Assembly (NCBI GenBank): GCA_040954595.2
Contig: CM082594.2
Location: 3,891,319 to 3,955,318 of the forward strand
Direction: 5' to 3'
From: Balanoglossus misakiensis
Lineage: Eukaryota > Animalia > Hemichordata
DNA: 64,000 nt
The first letter of the stretch is position 1; the number at the start of each line of letters is the position of its first letter. The position numbers and the translations under genes were made by a program. The notes beneath the pieces were generated by a model, which was not told the origin of the DNA, did no database searches, and saw nothing but the letters and a program-made list of their open reading frames with translations. Positions 9,924-31,346 of this stretch are shown here, piece after piece.

Positions 9924-10006
9924 ATACTGTAAAACAGGTCATTGGCATGACATGAAATTTTTGCTATATCAAAAGAAGCAACTGTTACGTGAGGATTAAT
10001 TTTTGC
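9924..10006 (+). mobile_element. Degenerate fragment of the ACTGTAAAA-terminated MITE family seen at 35659
   Basis: ACTGTAAAA...TCAAAAGAAGCAACTGTTACGTGAGGATTAATTTTTGC aligns with TCAAAAGAGGCAACTGTTACGCGAAGATTAATTTTCGC (~35701-35738), including CG-to-TG changes. Confidence 0.55.
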
Positions 10007-10540
10007 TTGGTTTCATGTCTGTTCGTGTGCCAGTTTAGTTGAGTGTGTGGCACATATGTGAATGTTGGTATATACAGCCTGTGCACAGTGTATATAATTG
10101 CACCATGTGATTGCGTGTGTTTGGACCTTTGCACCTCTTTGATGCCTGTCCGTCTGTGTGCTAGTTCATCAGAGTGTGGATGCGTGTGTGTAGGTATGTC
10201 TATGTATCATGTGTTTGCATCTTTTTCTGAATCTTTGTCTGCATGTCTTTGTTGATTCATGTATGTCTGGAACTCCTGTCTGTGTGCAAGTTTATCAAAG
10301 TGGGTGTGTGTGGCTAGGTATTAGTACTACATGTACCCTTTGTTTATGTCTGGGTGTGCACTGTCAGCCGTTCTGGATTGGCTGTGTTGTATATGTACAT
10401 TGAATGATTTTTGTGTCACTATGCATGGTTCTATTGTGTATGCAGAAAACAATGTACTTACATGTATTTTGATATGCAGTATTCAGTCTTTGTAAAGGTG
10501 TTTGAATGTAAAGTGTGACGATGGGGAATGGGATCACTTA

Positions 10541-11270
10541 GGGACCGTTCAGTTTTTACGGCCGGGGGTGGGGGGGGGGGATCAAAATCCAGGGGGGTGA
10601 CTTAAGTCCAAGAGGGGGGGGGGGGGGGGTCATCTGTTTTTTTATATGTTTAGGGGGGTCACATACTTTTGCCACCGAACTTTTGCTTTTGAGTACACAA
10701 AATTGCAGTTTCACGCCCTTTATTTTACAAAATTTTCTAATGTGGGAGGGGGACACCAACCCCCTCCATTCTCCCCCACATTGCATTTATTCGCTGGTTT
10801 GTCTAGTGTACAGGGCAGACTTCTTCCCACCCTACCCCGATGCTTCTTTTGAGTGGAGTGGCAAAATTAAAATTTGTCCTCCCTAACATTAAGTTAATTT
10901 GCTTTTGAGTTCATTAAAATGCAACTTTGAGCACTGTATTTTACCAAATTTTCTTATGTGGGAGGGGGACACCCCCGCCACTTTTCTTTTTTTACCAATT
11001 CTACCAACTATTGTATTGGATTGTCATTTTAGTTTGTTCATTTAATTTAATGTCTAATTGAGGCGAGAGGAGCCTCATTCCATTTATTGCATACAGTGTA
11101 CATAGGTTCATGTTTTCGGCATGGGGGGGGGGGGGTCATCATATTTTTGGGTCTGTCAAAGGGGGGGGTCATCATTTTTTGGTCCTTGGTGAAGGGGGGG
11201 TCGGCCTGATTTTGAAAATCGATGACACAAACTTGCCCCCCCCCCCTGGCCGTAAAAACTGAACGGTCCC
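10541..11270. mobile_element. PIF/Harbinger-type MITE (730 bp) in Helentron intron
   Basis: TIR GGGACCGTTCAGTTTTTACGGCC ... GGCCGTAAAAACTGAACGGTCCC, flanked by 3-bp TTA direct repeats (10538-10540, 11271-11273). Poly-G/poly-C subterminal tracts; no ORF. Confidence 0.85.
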
Positions 11271-11565
11271 TTATACTGTAAAGATTCTCATGTTATAAGG
11301 GTGGTAATTTCAATGACTCCTTTATGATGTTATATCTGGCACTGTCTTTTATCTTTTTGTATGTGGTTGTATGTGTTTGCTTTGATTGTATTGGCGCATA
11401 TACTGTAGTCTGTTATGTTTAGTGAAGATAAAGAGGAAATGCCTGATGGAAATAGATGAACTGGATTTTATGCAGAAATAATATGCATGTATTCTGTTGG
11501 ATTCAGTGGCAAACATGTACACCTATAACCAGTAATGATAATTTATATTATTTGCTTTCTTGCAG

Positions 11566-11595
11566 TTTTGTATAACCAAAGATATCCCACTTGAG
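11566..11595 (+). other. Putative 30-nt non-coding 5' UTR exon of the Helentron gene
   Basis: Acceptor TTTGCTTTCTTGCAG| at 11565 and donor GAG|GTAAGT at 11596. Confidence 0.55.
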
Positions 11596-12139
11596 GTAAG
11601 TGTGTCTGCCATGTGAAGAGACCTTCAGCATAATGCACTGCAGTACAGTTCTGCATGTGATTCATTGCAGGTTACTTGTCATAACTCTGCTCTGACACAG
11701 AGCTTATCAGATAAGACAATTGTTCATAGGTTGTCTGTCATGTGTCAACACAAGTGTTCTGTTAAATAACTAGTGCAAATGTGTTTAAATTTTATATGCA
11801 TGTTTGGCCTTAGTATAGTTTTTGGAAATTGTGAAATTTGGGTATATAATTAAACCCTCTTAGTATCCAAGTGTCCAATTGCCTTGAAATGTACAGTCAC
11901 TATGTGTAAATACAACAAATGCCATAATTTGAGTGGGAAATTTTTGCTGAGCTAAATTTCTTTAATCACGTCCTGTGTGAAAAAAATGTCTATAGTTTTG
12001 TTTGAGAATGGCACATGCTGTCTTACTACTTTGACTTTATTCTATGTGCATGAAGTCAACATATGTTGGAATAGTTTCTACAGAAATGTCTACTTGTCTT
12101 ACCCAGATTGCAAACAAATATTTCAAAAAGGTAAATGAG

Positions 12140-12420
12140 AAGAAAGTGTGATCGGCTGAATCTATGAATCTCAAACTTGGCACAATTATGTGGGCCTATG
12201 TAATTTCATGCATAACACTCTTGAATTTTTAATTACTCACTGTAATTGTCAGCTTTGATTGGAATTTTCATATGGACCTTATTTATATTAAAATGTGGAA
12301 TAAAAAATCTGTTGACAGTCCTTGTACACTACATGTACCGGTATATGGTCAGGATCCCACATGCCAAATTTCAAGGTTGTGGACCATGTCAACAGGTTTA
12401 TCCGTGACCTTGACCTACCC
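12140..12420 (-). mobile_element. Old inverted Helentron-family relic within intron of element B
   Basis: CGGCTGAATCTATGAATCTCAAACTTGGCACAATTATGTGGGCCTATG resembles the reverse complement of 28773-28820 of element E. Also TGACCTTGACCT and CATGCCAAATTT motifs shared with the subterminal regions. Confidence 0.5.
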
Positions 12421-12532
12421 ATAGGCCTATACCTCTACAGTGAAGCTATCACCACATTTTATTCTGGCATTCTGGTCTGTACAATAGTCCCGGACATTAA
12501 AATGTTAACAGTTATGTATTTATTGATTTCAG

Positions 12533-14527
12533 ATGCCACGCTCTAGGAACTGGAGGAAGAAGAGGAGTCAGATGAAAGAGGATGCTGCCCTCTCAAAAAA
12601 CAGCTTCGATATGACAGAGGATGCTGCCCTCTCAAAAAACAGCTTCGATATGACAGAGGATGCTGCCCTCTCAAAAAACAGCTTCGATATGACAGAGGAT
12701 GCTGCCCTCTCAAAAAACAGCGACGTAATCAAAGAGGATGCTGCCCTCTATAATCTCAGCGACAATACCCTTCGGGGTGCCAGCCTTCGGTGTTCGAAGG
12801 ATCAAAACTGTGAAACTTCCCTTCGGGGTTCAAACCTTCGGTGTTCGAAGGGTGAAAACTTTGAAACTTCCCTTCGGGGAACCAATGATTCTAGGGTACC
12901 TGCAAATGGTGACATTGTCACTTGTGTTAATGGAAATTTACAGATTGAGAAAGCAGTTGATATTGCACACAAGAGAAATGACAATGAATGTATTATTCAG
13001 AATGTTACCCCGAATGAATTTGTTTTCTCTCCTGTAACCACCACCATATGCCAAGAGTTATGCTGTAAGCTTCACATAAAATATGGAAATAAAGTTGAAA
13101 TGCTCGATGAAATTCGTAGTGTTGAAATTGGTGAACCATGCAATATGAAGTCTATTATCGGTGATGGTAATTGTTTGTTTAGAGCTTTGTCGTATGCCAT
13201 TAGTGGCAGTGAACGTAACCATGCTGTAATGCGAAAGGCCATTGTAAACCACATGATTGCAAATGACAGTGCATATTTTGGTTGGCTGGACCAAGACCAA
13301 GGATATACATCAGTTGCTGATTATATTGCAAAGTCTAGAATGAATTGCCTAACAATCTGGGGTTCCGAAAATGAGATCTTGGCCGCTGCCGATCTCTTAC
13401 AAACTGACATCTATGTGTATAGTTCTGGAATATGGCTAAGACATTATTGTAATGCAATTAATAAAAGTAATGTTGATAAAGGTGTAGGTATATACCTGAA
13501 CCATCGCAACAGAGATCATTTTGAAATTGTCAAGAGTGTAAAGACACGTGAGATGGTAACATCTGACTCTACACACATTGAATGTGATGAACTTGTCTCA
13601 AGTGAAGGTATGACTAATGAATTCCACAATGAGGCAGATAGTGGCAGTTGTGTTCCACTAAAGAGTCCATTGGACAAGAAAGGAAATTTCCACTTAAGTG
13701 ATGAAACTGAAAGTGTTACAAAAGGAAGAGGTAAGAGACCAGCAATGAGTGAACGATTACGAAAGAAAATCAGAAAACAAAAATATGAATGTAATGAGAC
13801 CACTGCAAAGAGCTGCAGGGCAATATCCAAATATGAATTGTACCACAGTAATTCTCAATATAGAGAGACGAAGAAGTTAAAAAGTAGACAGCATTATCAT
13901 CAGATCCGAGAAAGTAAGAAACAAAAAATGAAAGATTTATATGAACAAAATCCCGATTTTCGGGAGGCAAAGAAAGCCCACGTAAGAGTGAATTACCAAG
14001 AAAATCCCGATTTTCGGGAGGCAAAGAAAGCACACGTAAGAGTGAATTACCAAGAAAATCCCGATTTTCGGGAGGCAAAGAAAGCACGTGTAAGATTGAA
14101 TTACCAAGAAAATCCTGATTTACGGGAGGCAAAGAAGGCACGTGTAAGAGTGAATTACAACCAAAATCCTGATTTTCGGGAGGCACATAAGGCAGAAATG
14201 TCAAAAAAAATATCACAAAAATATCAGAGAGACGTAAACTTTCGTGAGGAAAAGAAGGCAAAATTAATACAGAAATACGAACAGAATGATCTTTACAGAG
14301 AATGCAAAAAGGCACAGAGTATTCAACGATATGAGATTGATCCTCATTACAAAGATAATGCATTGAAGAGAAGCAGGTGTCAGATGATACAGAATGACAT
14401 TGACAAGCATAATGTTCAGCATGTTATTGCTAATTTCAGAAATACTGCCTCAGAAGGTCCAAATTGTGTATGTTCTGTTTGTTATCGTAGACTTCAGGAA
14501 ACAAGTAATTGTTTGCAAGAAGGATAA
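12533..14527 (+). CDS. Helentron transposase N-terminal part: tandem repeats, OTU-like cysteine protease, Lys/Arg-rich repeats, first half of Zn finger (frameshifts into next ORF at ~14492)
   Basis: 664-aa ORF. OTU catalytic motif IIGDGNCLFRALS (Cys ~13172) with WG..NEI.AAA and NRDHF His. ATG directly follows acceptor TTTCAG|. Ends with CVCSVCYRRL. Confidence 0.85.
   Translation: MPRSRNWRKKRSQMKEDAALSKNSFDMTEDAALSKNSFDMTEDAALSKNSFDMTEDAALSKNSDVIKEDAALYNLSDNTLRGASLRCSKDQNCETSLRGSNLRCSKGENFETSLRGTNDSRVPANGDIVTCVNGNLQIEKAVDIAHKRNDNECIIQNVTPNEFVFSPVTTTICQELCCKLHIKYGNKVEMLDEIRSVEIGEPCNMKSIIGDGNCLFRALSYAISGSERNHAVMRKAIVNHMIANDSAYFGWLDQDQGYTSVADYIAKSRMNCLTIWGSENEILAAADLLQTDIYVYSSGIWLRHYCNAINKSNVDKGVGIYLNHRNRDHFEIVKSVKTREMVTSDSTHIECDELVSSEGMTNEFHNEADSGSCVPLKSPLDKKGNFHLSDETESVTKGRGKRPAMSERLRKKIRKQKYECNETTAKSCRAISKYELYHSNSQYRETKKLKSRQHYHQIRESKKQKMKDLYEQNPDFREAKKAHVRVNYQENPDFREAKKAHVRVNYQENPDFREAKKARVRLNYQENPDLREAKKARVRVNYNQNPDFREAHKAEMSKKISQKYQRDVNFREEKKAKLIQKYEQNDLYRECKKAQSIQRYEIDPHYKDNALKRSRCQMIQNDIDKHNVQHVIANFRNTASEGPNCVCSVCYRRLQETSNCLQEG
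12578..12748 (+). repeat. Coding 39-bp tandem repeat (EDAALSKNSFDMT), 4 copies plus a partial fifth
   Basis: Units start at 12578, 12617, 12656, 12695, 12734; in frame. Confidence 0.95.
13947..14190 (+). repeat. Coding 54-bp tandem repeat (18 aa, ENPDFREAKKAHVRVNYQ), ~4.5 copies
   Basis: AAAATCCYGATTT units at 13947, 14001, 14055, 14109, 14163. Confidence 0.95.
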
Positions 14528-17500
14528 ATATTACAGTAACAGAATTACATCTGATATTGCTGTAAAATGTATATCAGAAGAATATGTGCACAAATGTGCC
14601 CCGACATGTATGGCTGACTGCCCTCTCAAGAATAGTGCAGCCAGTACATTATGGATTTGTCACACATGCCACAGAAAGCTTTTACGTGGAGAGATGCCAG
14701 TTCAAGCTGCTGCAAATAACCTTCATGTCACACCAGTCCCTCCTGAATTGAAATGCCTCAACTCACTTGAGCAACATTTAATTGCATTAAATATACCATT
14801 CATGAAAATGTTGGCATTACCTAAGGGTGGTCAGAATGGAGTCCATGGACCTGTAGTGTGTGTCCCTTCTGATATAAAGAAGGCTACAAATATTTTGCCT
14901 CGAAATGAGTTTGATGATCAGATGATAAGGGTCAAATTGAAGCGAAAGCTGAGTTATAAAGGTTACTATGAGTATCAGTTTGTAAACAAACGACACATTC
15001 AGAATGCTTTGGAATACCTCCAGACAAATAATCATTATTACAGTGATATAACTTTCAATATGGATTGGAAAAATACTCTTGAAAAGACTGAAGAAGATCT
15101 TTCAGATGCTAAAATTAATAACAGCGAATCAGAAATGTCTGATGACAAAAACATTGATGAAAGCAATGAAAAGACCAAAGGAAATGTTTCAGATACTGAA
15201 GGTAATGATGTGTCATCAGACACAGAAGATAATAATGTGTCAAATAAAGATACTAATGGAATATTGATGGACACATGCCTCCAACCAATTGACATAGGTC
15301 AGGATATTCTTGATTATCACTTTGAGGATATATCTTGTGTTGCTCCTGCAGAGGGTAATACACCTGTTAGTCTGTTGATGGAAAAGTTGAATGAAGCTAA
15401 GTGCTTTCCTGTGTTATTCCCAACTGGGTCACCCACATTTCATGATGACCGAGAGGTTAAGATAACAATAGGACGATACTTGCAAAGTCGTGTAATGAAT
15501 GCAAGTAACAGATTTTCAAAAAGCACAGACTATATCTTTTATGCGCAATATCTGTCTGAAATTAACCAGGTTGTATCCAATGTGTCAATTGCTTTGAGAA
15601 AAGGAACTGCTAATGCTTGTGGCAAAAAAGTGACATCCGATGTTTTAAGTGACAGTGAATCTTTGAAACAGATTTTGAAGTCTGATGAAGGGTACAAGTT
15701 TTTAAAACCTATAAGAGGAACTCCTCCTTATTGGCAAGCAACACAAAAAGACCTGTTTGCAATGATCAGACAGTTGGGTATACCAACATGGTTTTGCTCA
15801 TTTTCTGCTGCCGACTTACGGTGGAAAGAAGTTATTGAAACTATACTTCGTGGAGAAGGAGACGTACGTAATGCTGAGGATCTTGATTGGTCTGAGAAAT
15901 GTGCTATCTTGAGACGAAATCCTGTAACAGCAGCCAGAATGTTTGATCACAGATTTCATTGTTTTCTGAGTGAAGTCATCATGTCACCAGCCAATCCTAT
16001 TGGAAATATCAAAGATTATTTTTATCGAGTCGAGTTTCAACAACGAGGCTCACCACATACACACTGTTTATTTTGGGTTGAAAATGCACCAAAGGTTGAT
16101 AGAGATACTGATGAAGATGTAGTTGATTTTGTTGACAGATATGTAACATGTCAAATGCCTTCTGTTGAGGAGGATGAGGAATTGCAAGAGATTGTGAATA
16201 AAGTTCAGAAACACAGCTCAAGGCACTCCAAATCTTGCAAGAAAAAGGGCACTAGATGCAGATTCAACTTTCCACGACCACCATCAAAGAAAACGTTCAT
16301 ATGCCGTCCTGATATAGATATAGAAATGACAGGTGAAGGTGAGAAGTCAAACCTTGATGATGATAAAGAAACACTAGAAGAGAAATGTCAAAGAGACACG
16401 ACTCAGTTAATTGATAATGTGATGAGCCAGATGGCTGCTAGGAATATTCTAGAAAAAGTGTGGACATGCCTGCATGACAAAGAGAAACAGATTGATTCGG
16501 TTGATGCACTGTTTAATGAAGTCAGCATTTCTCAGGAGATGTTTGAGAAAGCACATGCAATTTTGGCAAGGAAAACAAGTGTAGTATTAAAGCGTGAGCC
16601 AAATGATGTTTGGGTAAACCAATACAATTCTAACCTGCTTCTTTGCTGGAATGCAAACATGGACATTCAATTTGTTGTGGATGCTTATGCCTGTGTTGTG
16701 TACATTGTGTCATACATCTCTAAGGCAGAGAGAGAAATGGGTTTACTGCTGGAAAATGCACAGAGAGAAGCTAACAAAGAAGGAAATATGGATGCGAAAT
16801 CTGCATTGAAACAGTTGGGCAGTGTTTATCTGCATAACAGAGAAGTGAGTGCCCAAGAGGCTGTATATAGACTGTGTGGATTGAAACTGAAGCAATCATC
16901 TCGAAAAGTCCAGTTCATTCCAACTGGAGAAACCCCTATCAAAATGAGTTTGCCATTGAGTGTAATACGTAGCAAAATGACAGGAGATGATTTGAATGAA
17001 AATGATATCTGGTATAATAGCATTGTAGACAGATACAAGAACCGACCAAATGGAGACGAGTTTGACGACATGTGTCTTGCGACATTTTGTTCAGAATACC
17101 GAATAGTGTCAAAATCAGAAGTGACAAATACCAGCACTGAGAAACGTGCAAATCCAATAGTCAAGTTGAAAAATGGTGCAGGTTACATGCAAAAAAGATC
17201 TCGAACTGATCCAGCTGTCATTAGATATGCAAGATTTTCTGTGACTAAATATCCAGAAAAGTATTACCGCACTATGTTAGAACTCTTCTTGCCACACTGG
17301 GTTGATTCCCAATTGAAACCAAATGGGTTTGAAACATATGAAAATTTCTATTCTGCGGGTGCAGTGAAGTGTGGATCTGCATCGTTACAAACAGTGAAAT
17401 TGATAGTAGATGCCAATAAAGCAATGTTTGAGAAAGAGGCTGATGCCGTTGATTTAGCTGAAGAGCTCCTTGAAGGAAGTGGCCCTCTAGAGGATGCATG

Positions 17501-19772
17501 GGCCCAAATCTGTCCAGAAAATGAAATAGACAGATTAGAATGCATTGATGAACGTCAACAATTGCCTGATGATGATGATGTAAATGAGGAGGATATTCCA
17601 GATTTGGTGCACAAACCAAAAGGTGATTGCCACATAGAAATTTCTACCTCTGAAGTAAGGAGGGCTGATGTTCAAGCAATGTGTAGGTCACTGAACAGGA
17701 AACAGGCAGAAGTCTTTTATAGTGTCAGACAGTGGTGTCTGGATAAAAGCAATGGCAAGAACCCAGAATCTTTGTATTTGTTTGTCAGTGGTGGTGCTGG
17801 CACAGGTAAAAGCCATTTAATTAAAACCATATATCATGAAGCCAAACGAATTCTATCTCGTGTCATGGCTAATCCAGATGAAAAATCAATACAGGTAACA
17901 GCCTCAACTGGAGTTGCAGCATTTAATGTAGGAGGTGAAACTCTCCATCATGCATTTTCAATAGCAGTTGACTCAAAACTACCATATGAGCCACTACGTG
18001 AAGAAAAACTCAACACTCTTCGTTCCAAATTGGGAAATCTTCAGATTTTAATAATAGATGAGATTTCTATGGTAGACAGAAAATTGTTTCACTATGTACA
18101 TGGACGATTACGTCAAATCAAACAAACATCAAGTGATTCACCATTTGGAAATGTGTGTGTTATTGCTGTGGGTGACTTTTATCAGCTGCCACCTGTGAAA
18201 GCAAGTCCACTGTGTGTGGAAAATGATGCCATCAATATGTGGAATAATTTCAAAATTGTGGAACTCACTGAAATTATGAGACAAAAGGACTGTGCATTTG
18301 CAGAGGCACTAAATAGAGTAAGAGTTCATAAGAAAGGGCACACGCTGAGTGAAAATGATCTAGAAATGTTCAATAACCGTGTGACTGGTGAAGCATCTGA
18401 GGCAATTCACATCTTTGCTACAAATGCAGAAGTTAACAATTGCAATATCACAATGCTGCATTCATTGTGCTCTGATCCTGTATGTATTGAAGCACAAGAT
18501 TTTAGTAAGAATACTAAAACTGGGAAACTCCAAAGAAAGGAAGGCCATCATGCCAAGGTCTATAGGACCACTTTACCAAAGACTCTCACTCTAGCTAAGG
18601 GTGCACGAGTGCAATTGACACAAAATATTGATGTCTCTGATGGATTGGTGAATGGTGTATTTGGATCAGTATGTCACATTGATATGAAACCAAATGAAAG
18701 CTTTCCAACTGCTGTTTATGTTGTATTTGACAATGTCAAAGTTGGCCGAGGATTGCGAAACAAGAACCGTGTAAATATATCTGACCTTCCTGAAAACACC
18801 ACCCGTATAGAACCTCAGGAAATGTCTGTTGCAAGTAATGGTGGTATTAGAAGACAGTTTCCTCTGAAACTAGCATGGGCATGTACAGTGCATAAGGTAC
18901 AGGGATTAACAGTTGAAAAAGCTGTCGTTAGTTTGAAGAAAATGTTTGCACCAGGACAGGCATATGTTGCACTGAGTCGAGTGACATCATTAGATGGTCT
19001 AATAATTGATGAATTTAAGACATCTTCTATATATTGCAATGAAAAGGTTCAAGCAGCCTTGGAAATGATGCCAAAGTTTGTTGATGGGTGCTTTGAGCAA
19101 TTACAGCTAAACTATAGATGCTCTTTTATACTTCATAATGTTGAAGGTCTTCTGAACCACATGGAAGATATTCGTAGTGGCAAGGAATACTTGGAGTCAG
19201 ACTTTATTTGTTTGACAGAAACATGGCTAACTGAGAACCAAACAAAATGTGATGTAATAGTGAATGGATTTGAATTCAGTCACAAGCCTCGATCAAAATC
19301 GTATAACAACTTTGATATGAATACTTCACAGTTGCAGTTGCAACATCATGGTGGTGTTGGTGTCTACTACAAAGTAGGCCACTCTGTTGAAATTTTGGAT
19401 TTGTCTGTTAGTAACTTGGAATATCTTACATTTTATGTCAAAGATATCAATACAGTGGTGGCAGTAATTTACAGACCATCATCCTACAAAGCAGTCGCAT
19501 TCAGGAAAAACCTACTTCTGTTGGTGAAGGAAATGTCAAAGTATTCAGGTGCTACAGTGATCATGGGTGATTTCAATGACAATATTTTAATCTCTTCATC
19601 TCTTGTGAAAATCATGCAAGACCATGGTTTCAAGCAACACGTGAGCAAACCAACCACAGAAGCTGGTACATTGATTGACCACGTGTATGTGAAAGGAACA
19701 GGAAAGGTGGAAGTTGACATTGTGCCAAAGTACTTCAGTTTTCATGAAGCCATCAGCATTAAAATCTATTGA
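14394..19772 (+). CDS. Helentron RepHel-endonuclease: HUH Rep, Pif1-family SF1B helicase, C-terminal AP/EEP endonuclease (true coding frame from ~14493)
   Basis: 1792-aa ORF. Rep motifs WFCSFSAAD, YFYRVEFQQRGSPHTHCLFW (HUH, ~16020-16077), YIVSYISK. Helicase motifs GGAGTGKS (17790-17813), IIDEISM, GDFYQLPPV, EIMRQ, QFPLKLAWACTVHKVQG, GQAYVALSRV. Endonuclease motifs HNVEGL, CLTETWL, GGVGVY, IYRP, MGDFN, LIDHVY. Confidence 0.95.
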   Translation: MTLTSIMFSMLLLISEILPQKVQIVYVLFVIVDFRKQVIVCKKDKYYSNRITSDIAVKCISEEYVHKCAPTCMADCPLKNSAASTLWICHTCHRKLLRGEMPVQAAANNLHVTPVPPELKCLNSLEQHLIALNIPFMKMLALPKGGQNGVHGPVVCVPSDIKKATNILPRNEFDDQMIRVKLKRKLSYKGYYEYQFVNKRHIQNALEYLQTNNHYYSDITFNMDWKNTLEKTEEDLSDAKINNSESEMSDDKNIDESNEKTKGNVSDTEGNDVSSDTEDNNVSNKDTNGILMDTCLQPIDIGQDILDYHFEDISCVAPAEGNTPVSLLMEKLNEAKCFPVLFPTGSPTFHDDREVKITIGRYLQSRVMNASNRFSKSTDYIFYAQYLSEINQVVSNVSIALRKGTANACGKKVTSDVLSDSESLKQILKSDEGYKFLKPIRGTPPYWQATQKDLFAMIRQLGIPTWFCSFSAADLRWKEVIETILRGEGDVRNAEDLDWSEKCAILRRNPVTAARMFDHRFHCFLSEVIMSPANPIGNIKDYFYRVEFQQRGSPHTHCLFWVENAPKVDRDTDEDVVDFVDRYVTCQMPSVEEDEELQEIVNKVQKHSSRHSKSCKKKGTRCRFNFPRPPSKKTFICRPDIDIEMTGEGEKSNLDDDKETLEEKCQRDTTQLIDNVMSQMAARNILEKVWTCLHDKEKQIDSVDALFNEVSISQEMFEKAHAILARKTSVVLKREPNDVWVNQYNSNLLLCWNANMDIQFVVDAYACVVYIVSYISKAEREMGLLLENAQREANKEGNMDAKSALKQLGSVYLHNREVSAQEAVYRLCGLKLKQSSRKVQFIPTGETPIKMSLPLSVIRSKMTGDDLNENDIWYNSIVDRYKNRPNGDEFDDMCLATFCSEYRIVSKSEVTNTSTEKRANPIVKLKNGAGYMQKRSRTDPAVIRYARFSVTKYPEKYYRTMLELFLPHWVDSQLKPNGFETYENFYSAGAVKCGSASLQTVKLIVDANKAMFEKEADAVDLAEELLEGSGPLEDAWAQICPENEIDRLECIDERQQLPDDDDVNEEDIPDLVHKPKGDCHIEISTSEVRRADVQAMCRSLNRKQAEVFYSVRQWCLDKSNGKNPESLYLFVSGGAGTGKSHLIKTIYHEAKRILSRVMANPDEKSIQVTASTGVAAFNVGGETLHHAFSIAVDSKLPYEPLREEKLNTLRSKLGNLQILIIDEISMVDRKLFHYVHGRLRQIKQTSSDSPFGNVCVIAVGDFYQLPPVKASPLCVENDAINMWNNFKIVELTEIMRQKDCAFAEALNRVRVHKKGHTLSENDLEMFNNRVTGEASEAIHIFATNAEVNNCNITMLHSLCSDPVCIEAQDFSKNTKTGKLQRKEGHHAKVYRTTLPKTLTLAKGARVQLTQNIDVSDGLVNGVFGSVCHIDMKPNESFPTAVYVVFDNVKVGRGLRNKNRVNISDLPENTTRIEPQEMSVASNGGIRRQFPLKLAWACTVHKVQGLTVEKAVVSLKKMFAPGQAYVALSRVTSLDGLIIDEFKTSSIYCNEKVQAALEMMPKFVDGCFEQLQLNYRCSFILHNVEGLLNHMEDIRSGKEYLESDFICLTETWLTENQTKCDVIVNGFEFSHKPRSKSYNNFDMNTSQLQLQHHGGVGVYYKVGHSVEILDLSVSNLEYLTFYVKDINTVVAVIYRPSSYKAVAFRKNLLLLVKEMSKYSGATVIMGDFNDNILISSSLVKIMQDHGFKQHVSKPTTEAGTLIDHVYVKGTGKVEVDIVPKYFSFHEAISIKIY

Positions 19773-19782
19773 AAGACATCAA

Positions 19783-20292
19783 TGTTTGACCACAACATGG
19801 TTATCTGAGAAGCTAGCAAATATAATGTGAGGTACCAGTGAATGGATTTGAACTCAATCACCAGCCGCTGTCAAAATCATACCATTATTTTGAAACTAAT
19901 CTGCAAAAGATATGACTGTGTTGAAATCATGCATTTGCCTGTTTGTAACTTGGAAAATATTACATTTATGTCCAAGATATCAATACGGTGGTAGCAGTAA
20001 TTTAAGACCAGTGCATCATCATACAAAGCAGTGGTGTTCTATAAAACCTTACTTCTGTTGATGAAAGGAAATGTCAATTCATGTATCCAGGTGCTGCAGT
20101 GATCATCAGTGATATGAATGAAAATATTTTCATTATCAAGGTAGTGCAACCCTTTGGTTTCAAGCAACATGTGAGCAATCAAACTTAACAGAAGCTGGTA
20201 CATTGATTGACAATGTGTAATGTGAAAAGAACAGAAAATATTGTTGAAATACTGCCAAAGTACTTCAGTTTTCATGAAGCCATCAGCATTAA
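19783..20292 (+). pseudogene. Decayed tandem duplicate of the endonuclease-coding 3' end (copy of ~19209-19762)
   Basis: Colinear matches, e.g. GTGAATGGATTTGAA, AAGATATCAATAC.GTGGT.GCAGTAATTTA, CAGAAGCTGGTACATTGATTGAC, CCAAAGTACTTCAGTTTTCATGAAGCCATCAGCATTAA. Contains indels and stops. Confidence 0.85.
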
Positions 20293-23200
20293 CAACATTG
20301 AGGCATTATGCATATAGTAATTAAAACCCGTGTTACATACAACTGGTATTGAGGAGGCATAATGGGGTTTGAGACTTACGGGTCCCCATTTCGAGATTGT
20401 TGGGCAGGGGGGGGGGGGGGTTGTAAACATTTATTATTTACTCTTAGGTTACCCTGGTGCTAATTGTCACATTTGATATCAAGCTGTTACTGTTTTATCG
20501 TGATGGGAGACTAATGTATTTGATTGTCTATCATTTCTGAGCCATTTGTTTGACACGGCTGCAGTGATTTCATTGAAATGACATGGTTCACATGCAATTA
20601 GTTACATGGATCATGATATTATCATGTTGTAGGTGATTGTGCACACATACCTGCTTATTGATGTATTTTAAAGCACAACAATTTATAACATGCTACAAAA
20701 GTAGAAGTCAGTGGTGGCCATGCATTTATGATTTCTGATGCATGTGACTTTTACGCAAATATACCAGAAATATTGTGTTCACACTGGATGTGACCTATTG
20801 TTGTGATGTTATCCATTATATGCACCTGACTGTCATTTCTTGATGATTTTATTTATTCCAGAACTGTCATTTGTGATATGTGTTTCAACTGATTCATCAA
20901 AACTCACACAGTGTTAGTCCTACGTGAATGTATGTCATAATTCCAGCCTGGCACTTTGTCACTGTTATTAGCAGACATGCTATCAAAAGTGTGAGTAATA
21001 ACAGTCCCAATAGCCTGCTTACAGTGTTCTCCAGAGGATTTTGGGAAAGCATGGTTGTGAATTTACATAACAATACAATCAATTGTTATGTTAACTAAGT
21101 TATACAATGTATTATTATGTAGCCTTAATCAGTGGTTCACACTATGTTTTATGTAATACCCATCAGTAAGGCTTATTTAAAGAAACCATTGTAAGTGTCA
21201 AGTTCATAATGACAAATATGCCAAAATTGTAAATATTCAAGCTTGTATGAAACATTTCAGTCATTTACCAAGGCATTTTTATTCTGTTGACAATGAAATG
21301 GAAATTGGTAAATGGAAATTCCATAAGAATAAGGTTCATTTAAGAATAATAACACAACTTAACATTAAAAATGGATTTTTAATTACGCTGTATGTAAAGT
21401 ACCATTAGGGGAAATGTGTTAAACACATAGTTTGATTTACAATTGGTAAAACATTAGCACCAGGGTAGCCTAGGTTTATAAATGTTTTAATCCTTGTTGT
21501 AAATTTGTGAAATCTATTTTTATGCATTTTCCTTATGTTATCTACTCAATGACCACATACATTGTATAATACCACTGTCTACCTTTGTGTCTGTCAGGCT
21601 GTCATGAATGGCTTAAGTTAATACACTGAATTAAATTCATTATATAGACATTTGTGAAGCAATTTTAACAACTTGTTTGAAGTATAGTACGGTCTTTCAG
21701 TGCAGGATGGTTGCTTTCAGTTTCACAAAACAATATAAATTGCCCATCAAAGACACAATTTTTGGGGATACATGCACCAAGACAAACATCGTGGAATGGC
21801 AATCCCAAAATTATCCTTATATAACTGGTATTCAGACTTGTATTCTGTGAATCATCATTGCTATTTATGTAGAACAACATGCTGTAACTCCAGTAGCAAT
21901 AACTGAACCACTGCGTATAAAGCAAAGAGTGTACACTGAAATGTCACTATTGCTTTAATCCCAAACATTTAGAATGAGCATGGTTATTTACAGGTCCAAA
22001 GTAACCCACAAACACTGACACTATCAGGTTTGCATCACAGATGTGTCAGTCCCAATAATTTATTAGTTATATAATTTTTATGTCATTTTATTATATTTGT
22101 TAGTATAGAGAATCTGATATACACCACAGTACATGAAGGAATTTTACTTTCCTGATTTTTGTTCCCTATTAGTACTACACTATAAATACGTGAACTATTT
22201 GAAAAATTTCACAGCACTGATTGCAAGAACTTATGTAACTGTATTCATAGTGAAGTTTAATATTTAACTATATTTATTCTTGAATTATTGACATCAGTTT
22301 TGTGTTATTCCATATGCTATTATTGTCAAGAGGTGATTTATATCCTCATGTGACCTGCACTGGCCCATACATATACTCAGAATGCCAAATGTATTGGGTG
22401 TGTTCAACAGTTATGGCCTCAACTTTCATGTCACACTATCCCGTTAGTAACTATTCAGATCTTAGAGGTTCTTTTTGTTAATGAACAGGGAGTGAACAAT
22501 GGGTTATCTTAATGATAACCACACTCATATTTATATCAGATTAAGATTCTTTTTCCAGAATATGTCACCTGTCATCACCAATCCATGAATTACTTTTTAT
22601 AGTGTCCGAAGATGATTTTATAAGTTGAACATTTTCCATAAGGTCCACTATAGTGCACTGACATCAGTGTAATGATTACATAAGATTTAATGTGAGTTTG
22701 AATGACTGGGTTCTTCCCATTTGCATATTTATATGTTCACACCTGGTATTTATTACTTAGGTGAAGTTGATGAGCTAGTACTGTCTGCAAACAATAGAGA
22801 TTTAAATACAGAGGTCAAGCAGGCCAATCAGTTATGGCTACCTTTATTTGGGATTTGTCAGTAGACTTTCACATCTCACTGGGAGTGCCTACAAGACAGA
22901 ACTCTACTTGTTTTCTGTGTCACTCCAATCTATTCACTACTCGACGACCAGTTCAGCAATATGCAGTCCAGAAAAACTACGAACTGTTCACTCTTAAGCA
23001 AGTCCATTATACAGGGGATGCCACTTCTGCAACATTGCAATCTTTTGCAATTAAAGTCTTACACATTCACACATCGAGCTAATCCTATGCACCTCTCAAC
23101 TCGGACTTCGCCTGTGACCAATTCTTTGGCATGCTTTGTGCACGGAATGTTTACAAGACAAGATATATGGGACTGAATTTAGACAATATGTGATTTAGCT

Positions 23201-23439
23201 ATGGTGTAGATTTATTCTGCAATGTTGCTACTTGTATTGGTTGTCAATGAAATTATATTATTTGGTCTTTGACCAAAATCAACGTAATTCAATTCGTGTC
23301 AGTGTGGTCTTTTTTCTACGCCAATATTCTACCCTGGCCACTAATTTTTGGTTAGGAATAAATTACGTCACAATGTGTCATTTGACCCTTTTGTGACACA
23401 TAGCTGTTGCATTTTTTAGGTACACAATGCAATTGATAA

Positions 23440-26400
23440 TATAAGTTGACCCAGAATGAGATATGGACATAAAAGTGATTAGGTGCTCCATCCCTCCAAA
23501 TGCCAAGGCTCTATCTGCTTATAGGATGCTGAGATATGGGAAAAAGGGTCCAAGGTCCCCTGAGGGAAATAAATGTTGACCCCATACTGGTCCATGTCCA
23601 AGGAAAACCAAACCTCTAGCCCTATCTGTTTGCCTTTAATTAGGTATGCACATAATTAATAAGTTAAGCAGTTGGGCTTTTTTATTTTGGTCCCTGTAGT
23701 GCTCACTGGCCAACAGACACTTGGCTCAAAAACAAAGCCGTAGCCCTATAGGTTAGCCTTGAATTAGATATGCAGAAAAATGAAGTGTCAAAAGTAGGTT
23801 AAAGGTCATTGCCAAAATACCGAAATATTTGGGTCATGTCCTTGCAGCGAAAGTACCTATGTCAATTCAGAACTGTGGTGCTTTTACAACAGGAGCTATA
23901 AGGCATATGCACTTATTATTAGGTTCTTTACAAACTGGGTCAAAGGTCATGTGAAAATTGCCAACCAGCGAATGCCAAGGCTGTATCTGCTGTGGATACC
24001 AAGATATGGGAAAGTAGGTCAAAGGTCACCTGAGGTCACCCCAAATTTGGGCAAAAAAAATGGACCCCATACTAGTCTAGGTCCAACAAAAAACAGACCC
24101 CTAGCTCTATTGGTTCGCCTAGAATTAGGTATGCGCATAATTAATGAGGTTTAGTGTAAGACTCCATATGTGCTCCATTGCCCCCCCCCCCCCCCAAGCC
24201 AGGACTCTAACTGCTGTGGATGCTGAGATATGGGAAAGTAGATCAAAGGTCATCCAAGGTCACCCAAAATTTGGGCATAAAATGTTGACCCCAGAGTGGG
24301 CCATGTCCAACTAAAACCAGACCTCTAGCCCTATTGGTTAGCCTGGAATTAGATATGCAGAAAAATGATGTTTCAGAAATAGGTCAAGGGTCATTGCCAA
24401 AATTACCAAAATATTTGTGTCATGTCCTGGCAGCATTGGTACCCATGTCCACAAAATTCATGACTGTGGTGCTTTGACAAGAGGAGGTATGGGGAATATG
24501 CATATATAATTAGTTGTTTTAAAACTGGGTCAAAGGTCATGTGCAAACTGCCCCGAAAAATTGTGACAATTTCCGGTCATATGATGACTCATATCCAAAA
24601 AAAGAATTTCCGTGCTGTCAACATTTTGGCTACAAAACGGAATTTTCATTTTTTAATGGTTTTCCGAAAATCCAACATGGCCGCCATAATGATCGACCAA
24701 TCACAGTGCGCTTCGCAAACTTGATAGACATAGGTTAGGTGATCACATACCCCGAATCCCGTGACTCGGCAATCGCTGGTTCTGGAGAAGAAGATTTTTA
24801 AAGTTTTAAGTAGTTTTTCAGAAAAACAATTGTAGCAAAAAAACGGTATGTGTGACGTCATGATTTCAATGGGGTAAAATGATGGACAGAAGGTAGACTA
24901 CCTGCACACCAAATTTGAACTCGATTGGCCCAGTAGTTTTTGAGAAGGACTTGTTTAACGATTTTCAGGAAATCCAATATGGCCGCCAGGTCACGTGACT
25001 AATTAAATATTCACGAGCCACTGCACGTCTACTCATTGGCCCCTATCACCCTACCAAGTTTCAGCCCCCTAGGTGCTGCCGTTTTCCAGATCTACCTGGC
25101 CGATTTTTGGAGAAGAAGAAGAAGAAGAATTAAAGCTGCAAGCAGCATTGTCCGGGCCCAAGCTCTATTATCTGACCTGATTATTAGATATGCACATAAT
25201 TAATGATTAGAAACATAATGCTGTGTTTTATCCCATAAAATATCAAGGTTATATCTATGTTTGGTGCTGATATAGTGTTAAGTAGGTCAAAGGTCAACCA
25301 GGGGTCACCCACAAATTGGGCAGAATATTTTGACCCACAGTGGTCCATGTCCAACAAAAACCAGACCTCTAGCCCTTTTGGTTAGCCTAGAATTAGGTAT
25401 GCACATAAATAATGAGGTCAGCAGAGGTCACAGGTGACCCAAAACTTTGGCTTTTCATTATGGCCCCATATCTCCAAATGCCAAGGCTGTACCTGCTTTG
25501 GATGCCGAGATATGCAAAAGTAGGTCAAAGGTCACCCGAGGTCACCCAACATTTGGGCAAAATATTTTGACCCCATACTGATCCATGTCCAAAAAAACCC
25601 AAACCTCTAGGTCTATTGGTTAATCTGTAATTAGGTATGCGCATATTTAATGAGGTCAGCAGAGGTCAAAGGGGTCATGAAAAGTAGCAAAAATTTTTGT
25701 TCACATACAAATCCACATACATCAAAAACCAAACTTATAGCCCTATTGGTTAGCCTGGAATTAGATATGCAGAAAAATGATGCGTCAAAAGTAGGTCAAA
25801 GGTCATTGCCAAAATTACCAAAATATTTATAGCTTATACTTGTCATATGATGATTCATATCCATTAAAAGAATTTCTGTGCTATCAATTTTTAGGCTAGA
25901 AAGGGAATTTTTACTTTTTAATCGTTTTTCACAAAATCCAATATGGCCGCCATAATCTTCGACCAATCACATTCAACTTCGCAAACTTGATAGACATCTG
26001 TTTAATAACCACACACACCAAATCTTGTGACTCGGTTATCGCCGGTTCTTGAGAAGAAGATTTTTGAAATTTTACTAGGGTTTTTCGAATATCCAATATG
26101 GCCGCCATAATCTTGGACCAATCACAATGATCTTCGCAAACTTGATAGACATCAGTTAGGTGACCACATACCCCAAACCCCGTGTCTCGGTTATCACCGG
26201 TTCTGGAGAAGAAGATTTTTGAAATTTAAGCCAGATTTCAGAAAAAAAATTGTAGCAAAAAAACTGCAACTTTGTCAGCATAATTTCCAATTACAAAAAT
26301 GACGGGCAGAAGGTAGTCTACCAGCATGCCAAATTTGAAGTCGCTCTGACTTGTAGTTTCTGAGATCTGAGATTTGCATTTTTTCAGAAAATCCAATATG

Positions 26401-28450
26401 GCCGCCATGTCATGTGACTAATTAAGTATTCACAAGTCACTGCACATCTACTCATTAACCTTGACCACTGTAGCAAGTTTGAGAACTGTACCTGCAGTGG
26501 TGTCTGAGATCTAGAGCGATAAAGAATGGAACCAAGAATAAAGAAAGAAAGAAAGAAAGAAAGAAAGACAGAAAAACCCCAGCGAAACCAATACGGGCCC
26601 AAGCCTGGCTTGGCTTGGGCCCGTAAATATAGCTGCAAGCAGCGATGACGGGCCCAAGCTTAAGCCGAAGGTCAAAGGTCATATGTCGTCACCCAAAAGA
26701 TGGGCAAGAAATTTTGACCCCATACTGGTCCAGGTTCAACAAAAATCAAACCTCTAGCCCTATTGGTTAGCCTGGAATAAGGTATGCACATAATTAATGA
26801 GTTCAGCAGGTGTTACAGGTGACTTAATAATTTCACTTTTCATTTTCAACCCATCCCTCCAAACGCCAAGGCTGTACCTGCTCTGGATGCTGAGATATGG
26901 TTAAGTAGGTCAAAGGTCACCTGAGGTCACCCAAAATTTGGGCAAAAATTTTTGACCCTATACTGGTCCATGTCCCATAAGAACAAAACCTCTAGCCCTA
27001 TTAGTTATCCCTGAATTAGGTATGCACATAATTAATGAGATAAGCAGGTGTCACAGGTGACCCCCAATTTTGGCTTTTCGATTTTAGTCCCAACCCTCCA
27101 AACGCCAAGTCTGTACCTGCTCTGAATGCAGAGATATAGGAAAGTAGGTCAAAGGTCACCTGAGGTCACCCAAAATTTGGGCAAAATTTTTTGACCCCAT
27201 ACTGGTCCAGGTTCCACAAGAACAAAACATCTAGCCATATTAGTTAGCCCAAAATTAGGTATGCACATAATTAATGAGTTAAGCAGGTGTTACAGGTGAG
27301 CCCAAAATTTTGCCTTTTATTTTGGTCCCATTCTGCTCACGGGCCAATAGACAGTCACTGTACAGGACCATTGCACAGACGTGGACATAGCGTCATAGCT
27401 TAACTATAGAAAGTATAGGCCCTTGGCTTGGTCCAAAAATATGAAAAACTAATAATATTTAAAAGTCTTCTTCTCAAAATAGACTTGGCCCACAGCCTTG
27501 ATATTTGGTATGTTGGATACTGACCACATGGTCCAGAAAGTATCCTAACAGAATTTTGATATCTCAATTCATATGCAAATTAGGCCCATTTGAAAACTTT
27601 GCCCATATATGGTCAACAGGTCACATGACTAATTAAACATTCACAAGGGTACTGCACCAGCTCTCATAGGCCTGCACCATTTTGCCAAGTTTGAAATTTG
27701 TAGGTTCAGCCGTTTTCAAGATCCTATTGGCCGAAAAAACTACACAAGAAAAAAAAGAAGAATATAGCTGCAAGCAGCGATGACGGGCACAAGCTTAAGC
27801 CGAAGGTCAAAGGTCATATGTGGTCACCCAAAATTTGGGCAAAAAGTTTTGACCCCATACTAGTCCAGGTCCAACAAAAACCAGACCTCTAGCCCTATTG
27901 GTTCGCCTAGAATTAGATATGCACATAATTAATGACGTAAAGTATAAGGCTCCATTAGGAGTTCCATGCCTCCAAATGCCAAGGCTGTATCTGCATGGGT
28001 TGCCGAGATACGGTAAAGTAGGTCAAAGGTCACCTGAGGTCACCCAAAATTGGGCAAGAAATTTTAACCCCATACTGGTCCATGTTCAACAAAAATCAAA
28101 CCTCTAGCCCTATTGGCTAGCCTGGAATTAGGTATGCACATAATTAATGAGATAAGCAGGTGTCACAGGTGACCCCCAATTTTGTCTTTTCAATTTTAGT
28201 CACAACCCTCCAAACGCCAAGTCTGTACCTGCTGTGGATGCCGAGATATAGGAAAGTAGGTCAAAGGTCACCTGAGGTCACCCAAAATTTGGGCAAAAAT
28301 TTTTGATCCCATACTGGTCCATGTCCCACAAGAACAAAACCTCTAGCCCTAATAGTTAGCCCGGAATTAGGTATGCACATAATTAATGAGTTAAGCAGGT
28401 GTTACAGGTGAGCCCAAAATTTTGTCTTTTATTTTGGTCCCATTCAGCTC
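23440..28450 (+). repeat. Subterminal ~216-240-bp dispersed/tandem repeat units of the Helentron family (also at 6650-7220 and 7860-8130)
   Basis: Recurring AAGTAGGTCAAAGGTCACCTGAGGTCACCC...TTTGACCCCATACTGGTCCATGTCC...CCTCTAGCCCTATTGGTTAGCC...GGTATGCACATAATTAATGAG. Period about 238 bp (25284/25522; 26669/26907/27146; 28020/28258). Confidence 0.85.
25129..26625 (+). mobile_element. Element C: complete non-autonomous Helentron (~1.5 kb)
   Basis: Left end ATTAAAGCTGCAAGCAGC with sub-TIR CGGGCCCAAGC (25153-25163). (GAAA)n tract, then hairpin TACGGGCCCAAGCC-tggctt-GGCTTGGGCCCGTA (26592-26625). Confidence 0.85.
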
Positions 28451-28975
28451 ACGGGCCACTAGACTGTCACTGTACAGGACAATTGCACAGACGTGGACAT
28501 AGCGTCATAGCTTAACTATAGAAAGTATAGGCCTATGGCTGGGTCCACAAATATGACAAATAATATTTAATAATCTTCTTCTCAAAATAGACTTGGCCCA
28601 CGGGATTGACATTTGGCATGTAGGACACTGATCACATGGTCCACAAAAGTTGCTAAAAGAATTTCGATATCTCCATTCATATGCAAATTAGGCCCATTTG
28701 AAAACTTTGCCCATATATGGTCATCAGATCACATGACTTATTAAACATTCACGAGGGTACTGCACCAGCTCTCATAGGCCTGCATCACTGTGCCAAGTTT
28801 GAGATTTGTAGGTTCAGCCGTTTTCAAGATCCTATTGGGCAAAAAAACTACACAAGAAAAAGAAGAGGATGAAAAACCCCAGTAATACCAATAGGGCACA
28901 AGCCTGCTTGGCTTGTGCCCTAAAAAACCAGGATAATACCAATAGGGCCCAAGCGCTGCATGCGCTTGGGCCCTA
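26627..28975 (+). mobile_element. Element D: non-autonomous Helentron (~1.19 kb) interrupted by E at 27762-28922
   Basis: Left end ATATAGCTGCAAGCAGCGATGACGGGCCCAAGC. Right hairpin TAGGGCCCAAGCGC-tgcat-GCGCTTGGGCCCTA (28943-28975). Confidence 0.85.
27762..28922 (+). mobile_element. Element E: complete non-autonomous Helentron (~1.16 kb), close relative of D
   Basis: Left end ATATAGCTGCAAGCAGCGATGACGGGCACAAGC. Right hairpin TAGGGCACAAGCC-tgctt-GGCTTGTGCCCTA (28892-28922). Body colinear with D. Confidence 0.85.
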
Positions 28976-29093
28976 ATAAAGAAGAAATATTCCAACAATA
29001 CCAATAGGGGCACAAGCCCGATAGGCTTGTGCCCCTAAATATTCCAACAATACCAATGGGGGCACAAGCCGCCTGAGGGCGCTTGTGCCCCCA
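28884..29093 (+). repeat. Array of four stacked Helentron right-end hairpins
   Basis: Four AATACCAAT-stem-loop units (28892-28922, 28943-28975, 29005-29037, 29057-29093) with 13-14-bp stems and different loops. Confidence 0.95.
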
Positions 29094-31346
29094 ATTAACC
29101 TACACTTCTTACTAAAATTTACAACATATTTCCCTTGTAATTAACATCGTTCAATCGAATGCACGGGTCTGCGATCTAACTATCGGAGTTTTCTTTCGAT
29201 TGGGAAGTTTCCACTCGAGAAGAAGTCCTGCGAATTCATGCCGGCTTGGACTTGAACAACCCATCGCAATTTTATCGGAGATCAGATCTACATTAGAACG
29301 TGTCCGGGATAATAAATGCTATTCAAATATCAACCCGATAAAACAGCAAGAATTCTGCTGTGAAAGAGGTCGTAGAATTTGCGTGGCGGCATCGTTCTTG
29401 ACGGAGACGTGTTGCCGCACCACACCCATGTTTGCTATCGCACACTCATAAAAATGTCTGATATCGAAAAAAAGTGATACAGAGAAGCAAGTCATGAGAG
29501 TGGTAACGCTATCAGTGATTAGTATTTTAGCGTGGACCTTGCCCTATTTGTTGCCACCCAGGACATTCGGCGAGAGGCTTTAGTATTGTTAAATGCTCAC
29601 AACCTATTAAAGTCCCACTATACTAGCTGCCATTTTTTGCGTTATTTTCATGCGTTTACTGTCAAACTCAGAATGGTACATTTAAATTAGCCTGCTGTTG
29701 AGTATGCACACACTCATTATCAACCCGGATTGGGGCTGTAAAATGGAATATGAAAAGGTTAAATAATAAAGAGGTGTCACATCCGTTTATTCAGCCACCT
29801 ATTGCAAGATTACTCAACTATCGTGGTTTGCACATATGGGTATAAGGATTTTCACAAATTCAAAATGGTGTCATCATTCGACTTAGAATAAAGAGACGCC
29901 AACTGAAATACGTTATCGATTAAAATTGCTAAAACTGGCGGCTATGGGGTTTTAACGCCACAACCACTGTTGGCGTTGTTTTGGAGGCGGAATGCAATTA
30001 CGGGTGTCTCGGGGGGCTTGTACAGCGAGATGGACATGGTCAGTATAGTCTCTCTACGTTGGCGTTATAGGCCTAATGGATGTAAAAAGATATCTGCATG
30101 GCGTTATCAACAAATTCTACGGACAGACATGTTGTCGTGTGCAACGGAGAACGAGAGTTACACTTTAACAACAACAATGACTGAACATTTAGAAAAAGAA
30201 CATGGCCGCAGTTGTGAAGCCCCCCCCCCCTCCCCACCCCCCAAAATGAGAGAACATTTCCTAGAAGCAATTGTTCAGTTTTGGAATGCTGAAAAAAAGA
30301 CGTGTGTTTACGAGTATGAAAAAATGTGCAGTGTGTATATAGGGCTTGCATTTTTTCACACATGCCACGTTCACTGACCATATAACACGAACCTCAAACA
30401 ATTTATGACCTCTTTGTTTGATCTTTGAAAATACACAGTATCAAAAGAATGATTTATTATACATTGATTGTCTATATGTTGTAATATTATTTGGAAAGCG
30501 TCTGTGAAGAGCAGACACACAGACCGACGGACTGAGGACGAAACAACTGACAATAAGAAACATACATGTACTTCTACACAACACCTACTTGAAGAAAGTC
30601 TGCACTCAATACAGTTATTTATTAACTCTGAGTACACCGTTAACGACCCGTGTGTGAACAGTCTGTATACAATGAATGTACTTTGTGCCCATCCATACAT
30701 GTGCACGAGAAAACTACTTCCGGTGAGACGATGCCCAAGAAAACTACTTCCGGTGAGATGGCTGTGAAACCAACCATCTCCTCCAAATCAATGCCTACCT
30801 TTTTTCCTGAATCTAACCTTAACCGTTGGCGCCGATATATAGATTTCAATCGATGAACTCTGACCCAGAATACCGAATGACACTGGGAGAAACTGCATTT
30901 AGTATATGGCCCAGGGGCAGTTACCGTGTTGCGGTCATTTCTCGAGATCCGCCGAAAACAGCAAGAGACAGCATAAAAAACAGTCTAGTGAAAATAAACA
31001 TGAAAGTAACCTGGGCTACTGAAATAAACGGAAACTACTCAAGCATTACCCGGTTAAATATTGCCAATGAGTTTCGGAGTGGTGCCTCTAACTTAATGCG
31101 AAAAAGTTACTCAAGTAAAGTAAAGTTAAGTAAACAGTTCCGTGGAATCATAGTTCGCCAACCATAGTGATAGTGTATAGAGGTTATCAGTAAGGCCACT
31201 CAAATGTGAACTACTGTTGCATTCTACTGCCTCAAATACGGGCGTGGTACACACAGGTGACAGCAATTTCTTCACCTGTTTTCGGCTCAATGAGACTTTA
31301 ATTTGACACGGATATTACCATTCACTTGCAACGGCGAAGGTACGCC

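Follow-up and report, generated by a model that had tools for sequence, protein, structure and literature searches.

The 64,000-nt window analyzed here, positions 3,891,319 to 3,955,318 of contig CM082594.2 from the hemichordate Balanoglossus misakiensis, contained a nest of five related rolling-circle transposons, designated A to E, in the bracket order A[B[C, D[E]]]. The nest spanned 22.5 kb and comprised one 17-kb Helentron (B) and four nonautonomous relatives (A, C, D, and E). It was probably built up by every copy carrying an A-rich purine tract that matches the ordinary target preference of the family, with the hairpin at the right end being a neighbor of the target that is not needed as a guide.

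The elements were delimited by self-comparison, motif searches, and bracket matching of left ends with right hairpins (Table 1). Five left ends sharing a 12-nt core, at 6608, 7822, 25135, 26632, and 27767 (0.13 expected by chance, with 0 of 100 shuffles attaining five), and five right hairpins (z, -5.8 to -8.0) all lay on the plus strand, in agreement with the single orientation claimed in an initial annotation of this DNA. The 11-nt subterminal repeats occurred in three variants, and their left and right copies paired as the nesting predicts with two mismatches in total, a fit equaled by 4 of 120 permutations. When the inserts were removed, the tails of A and B matched each other and the tail of D resembled that of E. 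The five elements were 72 to 95% alike mutually, and C and D belonged to different subfamilies. Given its identity to the 3' part of B, A derives from a B-type Helentron by deletion, and thus B had landed in its own nonautonomous offspring. The two left ends examined folded no better than shuffles.

The insertions lay where the initial annotation had placed them, 56 bp (B in A), 62 bp (C and D in B), and 53 bp (E in D) from the right end of the host. The inner A-rich purine tract was carried by all five elements, 45 to 85 bp inside the right end, and the outermost element, A, was itself in unlinked A-rich DNA with no hairpin near. Distances from the cut to the hairpin foot were 18, 28, and 19 nt, which tracked GAA units with no fixed spacing; different GAA units had been hit in the near-identical tails of A and B, 18 versus 28 nt from the stem, pointing to sequence and not to a ruler. 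The starts of D and E were set one base earlier than first assumed, as 17 of 19 relatives of the D/E type have an A there, and the empty sites then fit. No target-site duplication was seen in the restored hosts, in which the minus strand of the target was T-rich. Under the boundaries giving the best restoration of the hosts, the cuts fell between A and A for B and E and between A and T for A and for the first-arrived of C and D; if D came first, the cut for C reads A/A. Because terminal A's let the boundary slide, leaving A/A versus A/T ambiguous, the claim that all cuts fall between two A's is a permissible, unproven reading.

Relatives were collected with a 20-letter left-end pattern from metagenome contigs, about half of the collection being covered. 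Among the 120 loci obtained, 28 were judged by eye to be chance matches in unrelated DNA of coding-like character and were dropped; the 94 left ends that resulted were reduced to 88 by taking out five duplicates and merging L001 with L065, and 78 of the 88 came from two related contig sets. Flank classes were assigned by inspection and BLAST of the upstream flanks. In total, 79 left ends were in unlinked A-rich DNA, 5 were directly after a right hairpin, 3 were in a host tract, and 1 (L026) was inside the left part of a decayed relative, shares that are rough, since short-read assembly can hide or fabricate repeat-to-repeat junctions. Contact with a right end or its tract thus involved 8 of the 88 left ends (9%; 95% interval, 4 to 17%). 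The host-tract insertions had the same orientation in two cases (L024 and L087) and were reversed in one (L101), in a tract made up of A and T alone, where both strands present A's. Right ends were stacked 59, 97, and 64 bp apart in L021, L065, and L106, respectively, so the pattern is not peculiar to the window.

A scan of genome_contigs returned 20 loci with two real left ends (L123 and L126), both in unlinked A-rich DNA and kept outside the 88; these were contigs in prokaryote genome bins that carried the left end of the present animal transposon, probably through host contamination. A strict left-end-plus-repeat pattern had no match in viral or metagenome contigs, and another scan of viral contigs gave one chance match only. 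In the short contigs L012 (1096-2708) and L046 (178 and 1880), two to three family left ends lay 0.5 to 1.7 kb apart outside tracts, a clustering that goes beyond the tract.

A target profile was built only from the 79 unlinked left-end flanks of relatives, in which A made up 39 to 75% of each position from -17 to -3, 86% at -2, and 95% at -1. Under this profile the real cuts ranked 3rd of 2,508 positions in A, 20th of 34,718 in B, and 21st of 2,344 in D, within the top 0.06 to 0.9% of host positions (ranks under the first-assumed boundaries were 8, 18, and 2, respectively), and they scored like ordinary unlinked sites (62nd to 78th percentile, leave-one-out). The 40-bp tract received 28 to 44% of the predicted insertion weight in A, 51 to 76% in D, and 2 to 3% in B, and the forward-to-reverse orientation bias of the profile was at least 463:1. 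Given these ranks and this strand bias, neither the site within the host nor the shared orientation requires the hairpin; the inserts have the same orientation because the target is strand-asymmetric. The argument that B offered 17 kb of other TT sites used the wrong null, since the target is a 17-nt A-rich flank: B has 1,873 AA and 1,625 TT dinucleotides, and only 19 of its 34,718 positions outscored the real cut. A target defined by the dinucleotide AA alone was rejected, as it failed to single out the tract (0.3% of B's weight).

A microsatellite was present within 30 bases of 5 of the 79 unlinked left ends, and 5 or 6 of the 79 were counted as lying in unlinked microsatellites. An AAT repeat was enriched in the unlinked TTAAAG-type flanks, 7 of 61 of which held AATAATAA (1.2 expected; 0 of 2,000 shuffles), and the TTAAAG-type families mostly carry the AAT repeat as their own inner tract. 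The smaller set of 18 unlinked TATAGC-type flanks showed no motif enrichment. One copy of an AAT-tract family (L045) was in an unlinked (GAA)n run, which weakens strict matching between tract and target. Helraiser is described as preferring targets that are AT-rich across about 20 bp, more strongly so on one side, with no local hopping (PMC4778049).

The junction between C and D departed from the simple pattern. The left end of D touched the hairpin of C with zero tract bases between them, and so one of the two had entered at the junction of the other. A purine tract was directly upstream only of B, E, and the first of C and D, which corrects the statement that all insertions lie in the purine-rich microsatellite. 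With that hairpin upstream, the site of D scored -6.5 to -7 (bottom 2 to 4%), far under normal targets and similar to head-to-tail junctions of relatives (-2.9 to -6.9). If inserted at the left junction of D, C would share its ten-base target context (GAAGAA, then ATAT) with the insertion of B in A. It is likely, from these sequence contexts, that D came first and that C reused its left junction. Insertion would leave the key upstream half of the target intact, and the same base could then be used again.

Contigs from the same organism came from three sequencing runs, all of one sample, and the junctions reported are those among the pieces listed. Hairpin depth was about 500 to 1,600 times that of the unique flank, which, because depth is not copy number, was taken merely to mean very many copies. 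Contigs joining 27760 to 28923, corresponding to D without E, were present in both deep runs with 26 to 27 letters on the shorter side, at about 35 times the flank depth in X2. Right-end-to-tract junctions were found at 1 to 15 times the flank depth and included E type to D-type tract, D type to E type, E type to E type, and C type to A/B type; in one contig, a C-type left end came immediately after an A-type end. Among the pieces listed, one (X1 record 3) spanned a junction by at least 31 letters on both sides, and the junction contigs amounted to at least about 1% of the hairpin depth per type. The contigs joining an E-type end to a D-type tract matched the window except at one letter and one gap and were at about 9 times the unique-flank depth in both runs, indicating that this junction is present in several copies. 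The several junction types imply that tract nesting recurs in this genome.

Taken with the relatives, these contigs clarified the proposal of a self-made landing pad to which the Rep protein or the resident hairpin directs new copies. That each element supplies its own site was supported, and this recurred in L021, L065, L106, L024, L087, and the organism's own contigs; Rep or the hairpin as the targeting agent was not, given the 79 of 88 unlinked insertions, the reversed L101, and the variable cut-to-foot distance. New copies would pick sites by a strand-asymmetric sequence, an A-rich stretch of about 17 bases with AA as its last two, on the strand running into the left end, and the tract would be the best site within a resident, usable only in one direction. 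A further tract comes with every insertion, which also keeps an A-rich flank at the left junction, so that the locus would gain targets as it is struck. The insertions may have occurred in the order A into unlinked DNA, B into the tract of A, D into the tract of B, and then E into the tract of D and C into the left junction of D.

Several points weigh against targeting by sequence alone. The within-window profile chances that each of the later four insertions would touch a resident tract or junction were 0.8, 1.2, 4.7, and 2.0%, the product of which was about 9e-8 (2.5e-8 with a tempered profile), so the sequence model under-predicts the pile. Other parts of the window contained an (AAAT)19 repeat and A-rich sites of higher score, all of them empty, and the tract of B received both C and D yet held only its small share of B's weight. 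Head-to-tail junctions in relatives, 5 of 88, exceeded a rough estimate for one reusable site per copy, and short-read assemblies probably under-report repeat-to-repeat junctions. The profile itself derives from other animals and other subfamilies and describes the upstream flank only, and the arrival order of C and D is inferred and undated. One such pile per genome would be unremarkable if each step had a chance near 0.1; the difference may be made up by a stronger preference for GAA in this species, composites copied as units, a local hot spot, or help from a terminus.

Since the profile alone falls short, a contribution of the terminus is conceivable, in which sequence would set the exact base and RepHel at a resident end, or single-stranded DNA from hairpin extrusion, would raise the rate several-fold. 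This would supply the per-step chance of about 0.1 needed where the profile misses by orders of magnitude, and it agrees with the 8 of 88 related left ends in contact with a right end or its tract, with the organism's own contigs holding several distinct right-end-to-tract junctions and an A-type end directly before a C-type left end, with the insertion of maize Helitrons near other Helitrons (Yang and Bennetzen 2009, via PMC12477314), and with a bat Helitron 5' end abutting the 3' end of another (PMC4778049). We nevertheless regard it as rather unlikely: 90% of related insertions were unlinked, none of the 78 left ends from the two deepest contig sets was a forward tract insertion, the cut-to-stem distance varied (18 to 28 nt here and about 20 to 30 nt in relatives), each type of junction contig from the organism had about 1% of the hairpin-bin depth, and the window was chosen for showing a pile. 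The multicopy junction of an E-type end with a D-type tract might instead mean that part of the pile arrived ready-made, as nested pairs (D[E]) or read-through double right ends copied as units, with fewer independent hits; 3' hairpin read-through has been shown for Helraiser (PMC4778049), and self-insertion composites have been proposed in Fusarium (PMC5148889). Repeated hits at one favored base would, however, give the same multicopy junction, D without E was better represented in X2, no copy of the whole composite was found (no genome-wide search for one was made), and the choice of the tract by the first nesting is left unexplained, which makes ready-made arrival improbable.

An origin of the stack by tandem duplication, as a rolling-circle concatemer, or through an assembly artifact is very improbable, even though all five head-to-tail pairs of relatives look like same-family end joins and no listed contig covers the whole region. 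The five elements are far from near-identical, C and D come from different subfamilies, the end repeats pair as nesting predicts, removal of the inserts restores matching A and B tails and an E-like D tail, and D without E is found in reads. Bacterial IS200/IS605 HUH transposons have guide bases at the foot of a hairpin that steer target choice. By analogy, the tract at the right hairpin's foot could be a working part, a lineage-specific target copy, (GAA)n in this case and for the most part (AAT)n in relatives, which would guide insertion by pairing with the target strand, an idea we consider doubtful. If it were true, Helentron targeting would be DNA-guided and changeable by a tract swap, and self-nesting would be a by-product.

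Judged from its sequence, B is a Helentron (HLE2): it combines Rep (HUH) and PIF1 in one transposase (RepHel) and has an endonuclease, DUF6570, subterminal inverted repeats, and a terminal hairpin. Domain scores were 5e-31 for Helitron_like_N, 2e-31 for PIF1, and 8e-22 for DUF6570, the last being an HLE2 marker (PMC11417382); the HUH motif and Walker A/B were present, and the C-terminal AP-like endonuclease matched Exo_endo_phos at residues 1584-1771 with 27.8 bits (cutoff, 24.5). The best of 806 RepHel homologs were from acorn worm, abalone, hagfish, and fishes, with a top identity of 57 to 60%. RepHel was split by one frameshift, as homologs P0002, P0004, and P0007 aligned in one frame to 14,494 and in another from 14,493; B as assembled thus appears to lack the single intact RepHel frame of an autonomous active element, although a sequencing error is possible. 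A, C, D, and E have the features of its HINE partners, being noncoding (no open reading frame of at least 150 amino acids) and containing 155- and 239-bp internal repeats, and the left end of A is identical to that of B. A canonical Helitron (HLE1; 5'-TC and CTRR-3' ends, lacking inverted repeats) was ruled out, since the ends start with TTAAAGC or ATATAGC and finish with a hairpin plus TAA or CAA. Directly after the RepHel stop, at 19783-20301, was a decayed second copy (about 78%) of the endonuclease-coding end, and extra copies of the 239-bp HINE repeat unit were located in B at 23478-23962, upstream of the part shared with A. Shortly before RepHel, the minus strand of B carried a decayed D/E-like fragment (12153-12452; 68 to 73% identity), which was without ends and was not counted as an off-tract insertion.

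Two further proposals of the initial annotation were not supported. A safe harbor that spares RepHel implies selection that one locus cannot show; B also holds an unrelated repeat at 10534-11018, and because RepHel is frameshifted, the sparing is moot here. Movement of the whole 22.5-kb composite would need read-through of several inner ends, and the 3' hairpin of Helraiser is a terminator bypassed only sometimes (PMC4778049). By analogy with the Fusarium elements (PMC5148889), chimeras ending at the first end met would be a more likely product than the whole composite.

Table 1. Positions of the nested elements, their tracts, and the RepHel reading frames in the window
Feature	Position	Strand	Evidence
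Element A, left part (nonautonomous, 1,270 bp without inserts; deletion derivative of B-type Helentron)	6603..7816	+	Left-end core; 94.6% identity over 1,233 bp to B's 3' part
Purine/A-rich tract of A, B inserted at its 3' side	7789..7816	+	
Element B, main part (Helentron, 17,375 bp without inserts)	7817..25129	+	
RepHel N-terminal reading frame (OTU domain); frame lost near 14,494	12527..14527	+	Pfam OTU 2.5e-09
RepHel main reading frame: DUF6570, Helitron_like_N (HUH Rep), PIF1 helicase, C-terminal endonuclease	14388..19772	+	
(GAA)n tract of B, upstream half; C and D entered at one position	25109..25129	+	
Element C (1,497 bp); own (AAAG)n tract 26540-26574 empty; right hairpin 26592-26625	25130..26626	+	
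Element D, left part; left end abuts right end of C; purine tract about 27746-27761	26627..27761	+	
Element E (1,162 bp, 87.7% identity to D); own tract near 28854-28875 empty; hairpin 28892-28922	27762..28923	+	
Last 53 bp of D, right hairpin 28943-28975	28924..28976	+	Contigs joining 27760 to 28923 (D without E)
Last 62 bp of B, right hairpin 29005-29037	28977..29038	+	
Last 56 bp of A, right hairpin 29057-29093; unique DNA beyond	29039..29094	+	Contig depth drops several hundred-fold past 29,100

Outside the nest, a 1.83-kb element at 31608-33442 had 652-bp terminal inverted repeats that were 99.2% alike, with each end bounded by TTAA; it looks like a young nonautonomous cut-and-paste transposon, which we take to be Kolobok- or piggyBac-like. 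The repeat at 10534-11018, in the 5' noncoding part of B, and a second copy at 55136-55765 were 70 to 83% alike and belonged to an interspersed repeat with G-runs. A perfect (ATGT)185 microsatellite of 740 bp with zero mismatches was present at 2315-3054. A tRNA-Ala gene was found on the minus strand at 56051-56138 (ARAGORN and Rfam) and was the sole match in the Rfam search. Pieces of host genes comprised a NIDO-domain exon at 43328-43909 and, at 57747-60641, a run of repeated exon-sized units of about 200 bp that were 70 to 83% alike. Over about 198 bp of unique flank at 29203-29400, two contigs of one run differed by 14 letters and a gap, which suggests high heterozygosity.

The nest resembles published Helentrons and HINE/DINE-1 elements (HLE2; Thomas et al. 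2014, PMC4067079; Li et al. 2024, PMC11417382) in its RepHel with C-terminal endonuclease, OTU, and DUF6570, its short subterminal inverted repeats, a hairpin at one end, the lack of a target duplication, T-rich targets (A-rich on the plus strand here) with an uncertain number of terminal T's or A's, and nonautonomous copies with internal tandem repeats and a high copy number. It differs in that the stem of the hairpin, at the extreme end, is formed by the right subterminal repeat itself and in that, with RepHel on the plus strand, the flank is A-rich and not T-rich. In the available parts of those two papers, clustering is given as a possibility and no insertion into an element's own subterminal microsatellite is described; one of them offers a hypothesis linking the Helentron endonuclease and poly-T targets (PMC4067079). 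Multiple termini and head-to-tail junctions, produced by landing in or beside a relative, are known from self-inserted or adjacent Helitrons, namely, Fusarium FoHeli (PMC5148889), bat Helibat (PMC4778049), Xenopus HelenXT233, which has two left ends (PMC11417382), and clustered maize copies (via PMC12477314). The arrangement in each of these examples is a single nest, a doubled 5' end, or an abutting pair, whereas the present nest stacks four right ends, with a defined tract within the right end as the landing site. In the tandem dimers formed by double insertion in Drosophila (McGurk and Barbash 2018, PMC5932611), site preference and target survival lead to reuse of one position, which fits the C-D junction; the target there is regenerated by target-site duplication, whereas here there is none and the intact A-rich flank plus the first bases of the element would serve.

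No published description of insertion into a Helentron's own subterminal tract was found, with supplements, Repbase notes, and most subscription journals falling outside the search. A lepidopteran Helitron-like family is reported, by the title of a 2010 paper of Coates et al., to disrupt (GAAA)n microsatellites. The available parts of PMC7492417, PMC3789558, PMC13085455, PMC13286980, PMC4344730, and PMC3630058 gave no account of self-targeted tracts; among them, Paramecium Helitrons apparently directed to telomeric repeats in one orientation are a parallel for repeat-directed polarity. T-rich targets, variable terminal T's, self-insertion, doubled ends, abutting copies, and clustering are already published. 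The locus is a real, well-resolved nest of a known family with modest novelty in the siting of self-insertion, and it refines known Helitron self-insertion without adding a new kind of system. Together with its relatives, it provides a concrete profile of the target, in which some 17 bases on one side are A-rich and microsatellites are favored, and two targets made by the elements themselves, at the inner tract and at the left junction, which explain a possible origin of HINE clusters, stacked ends, and new end combinations.

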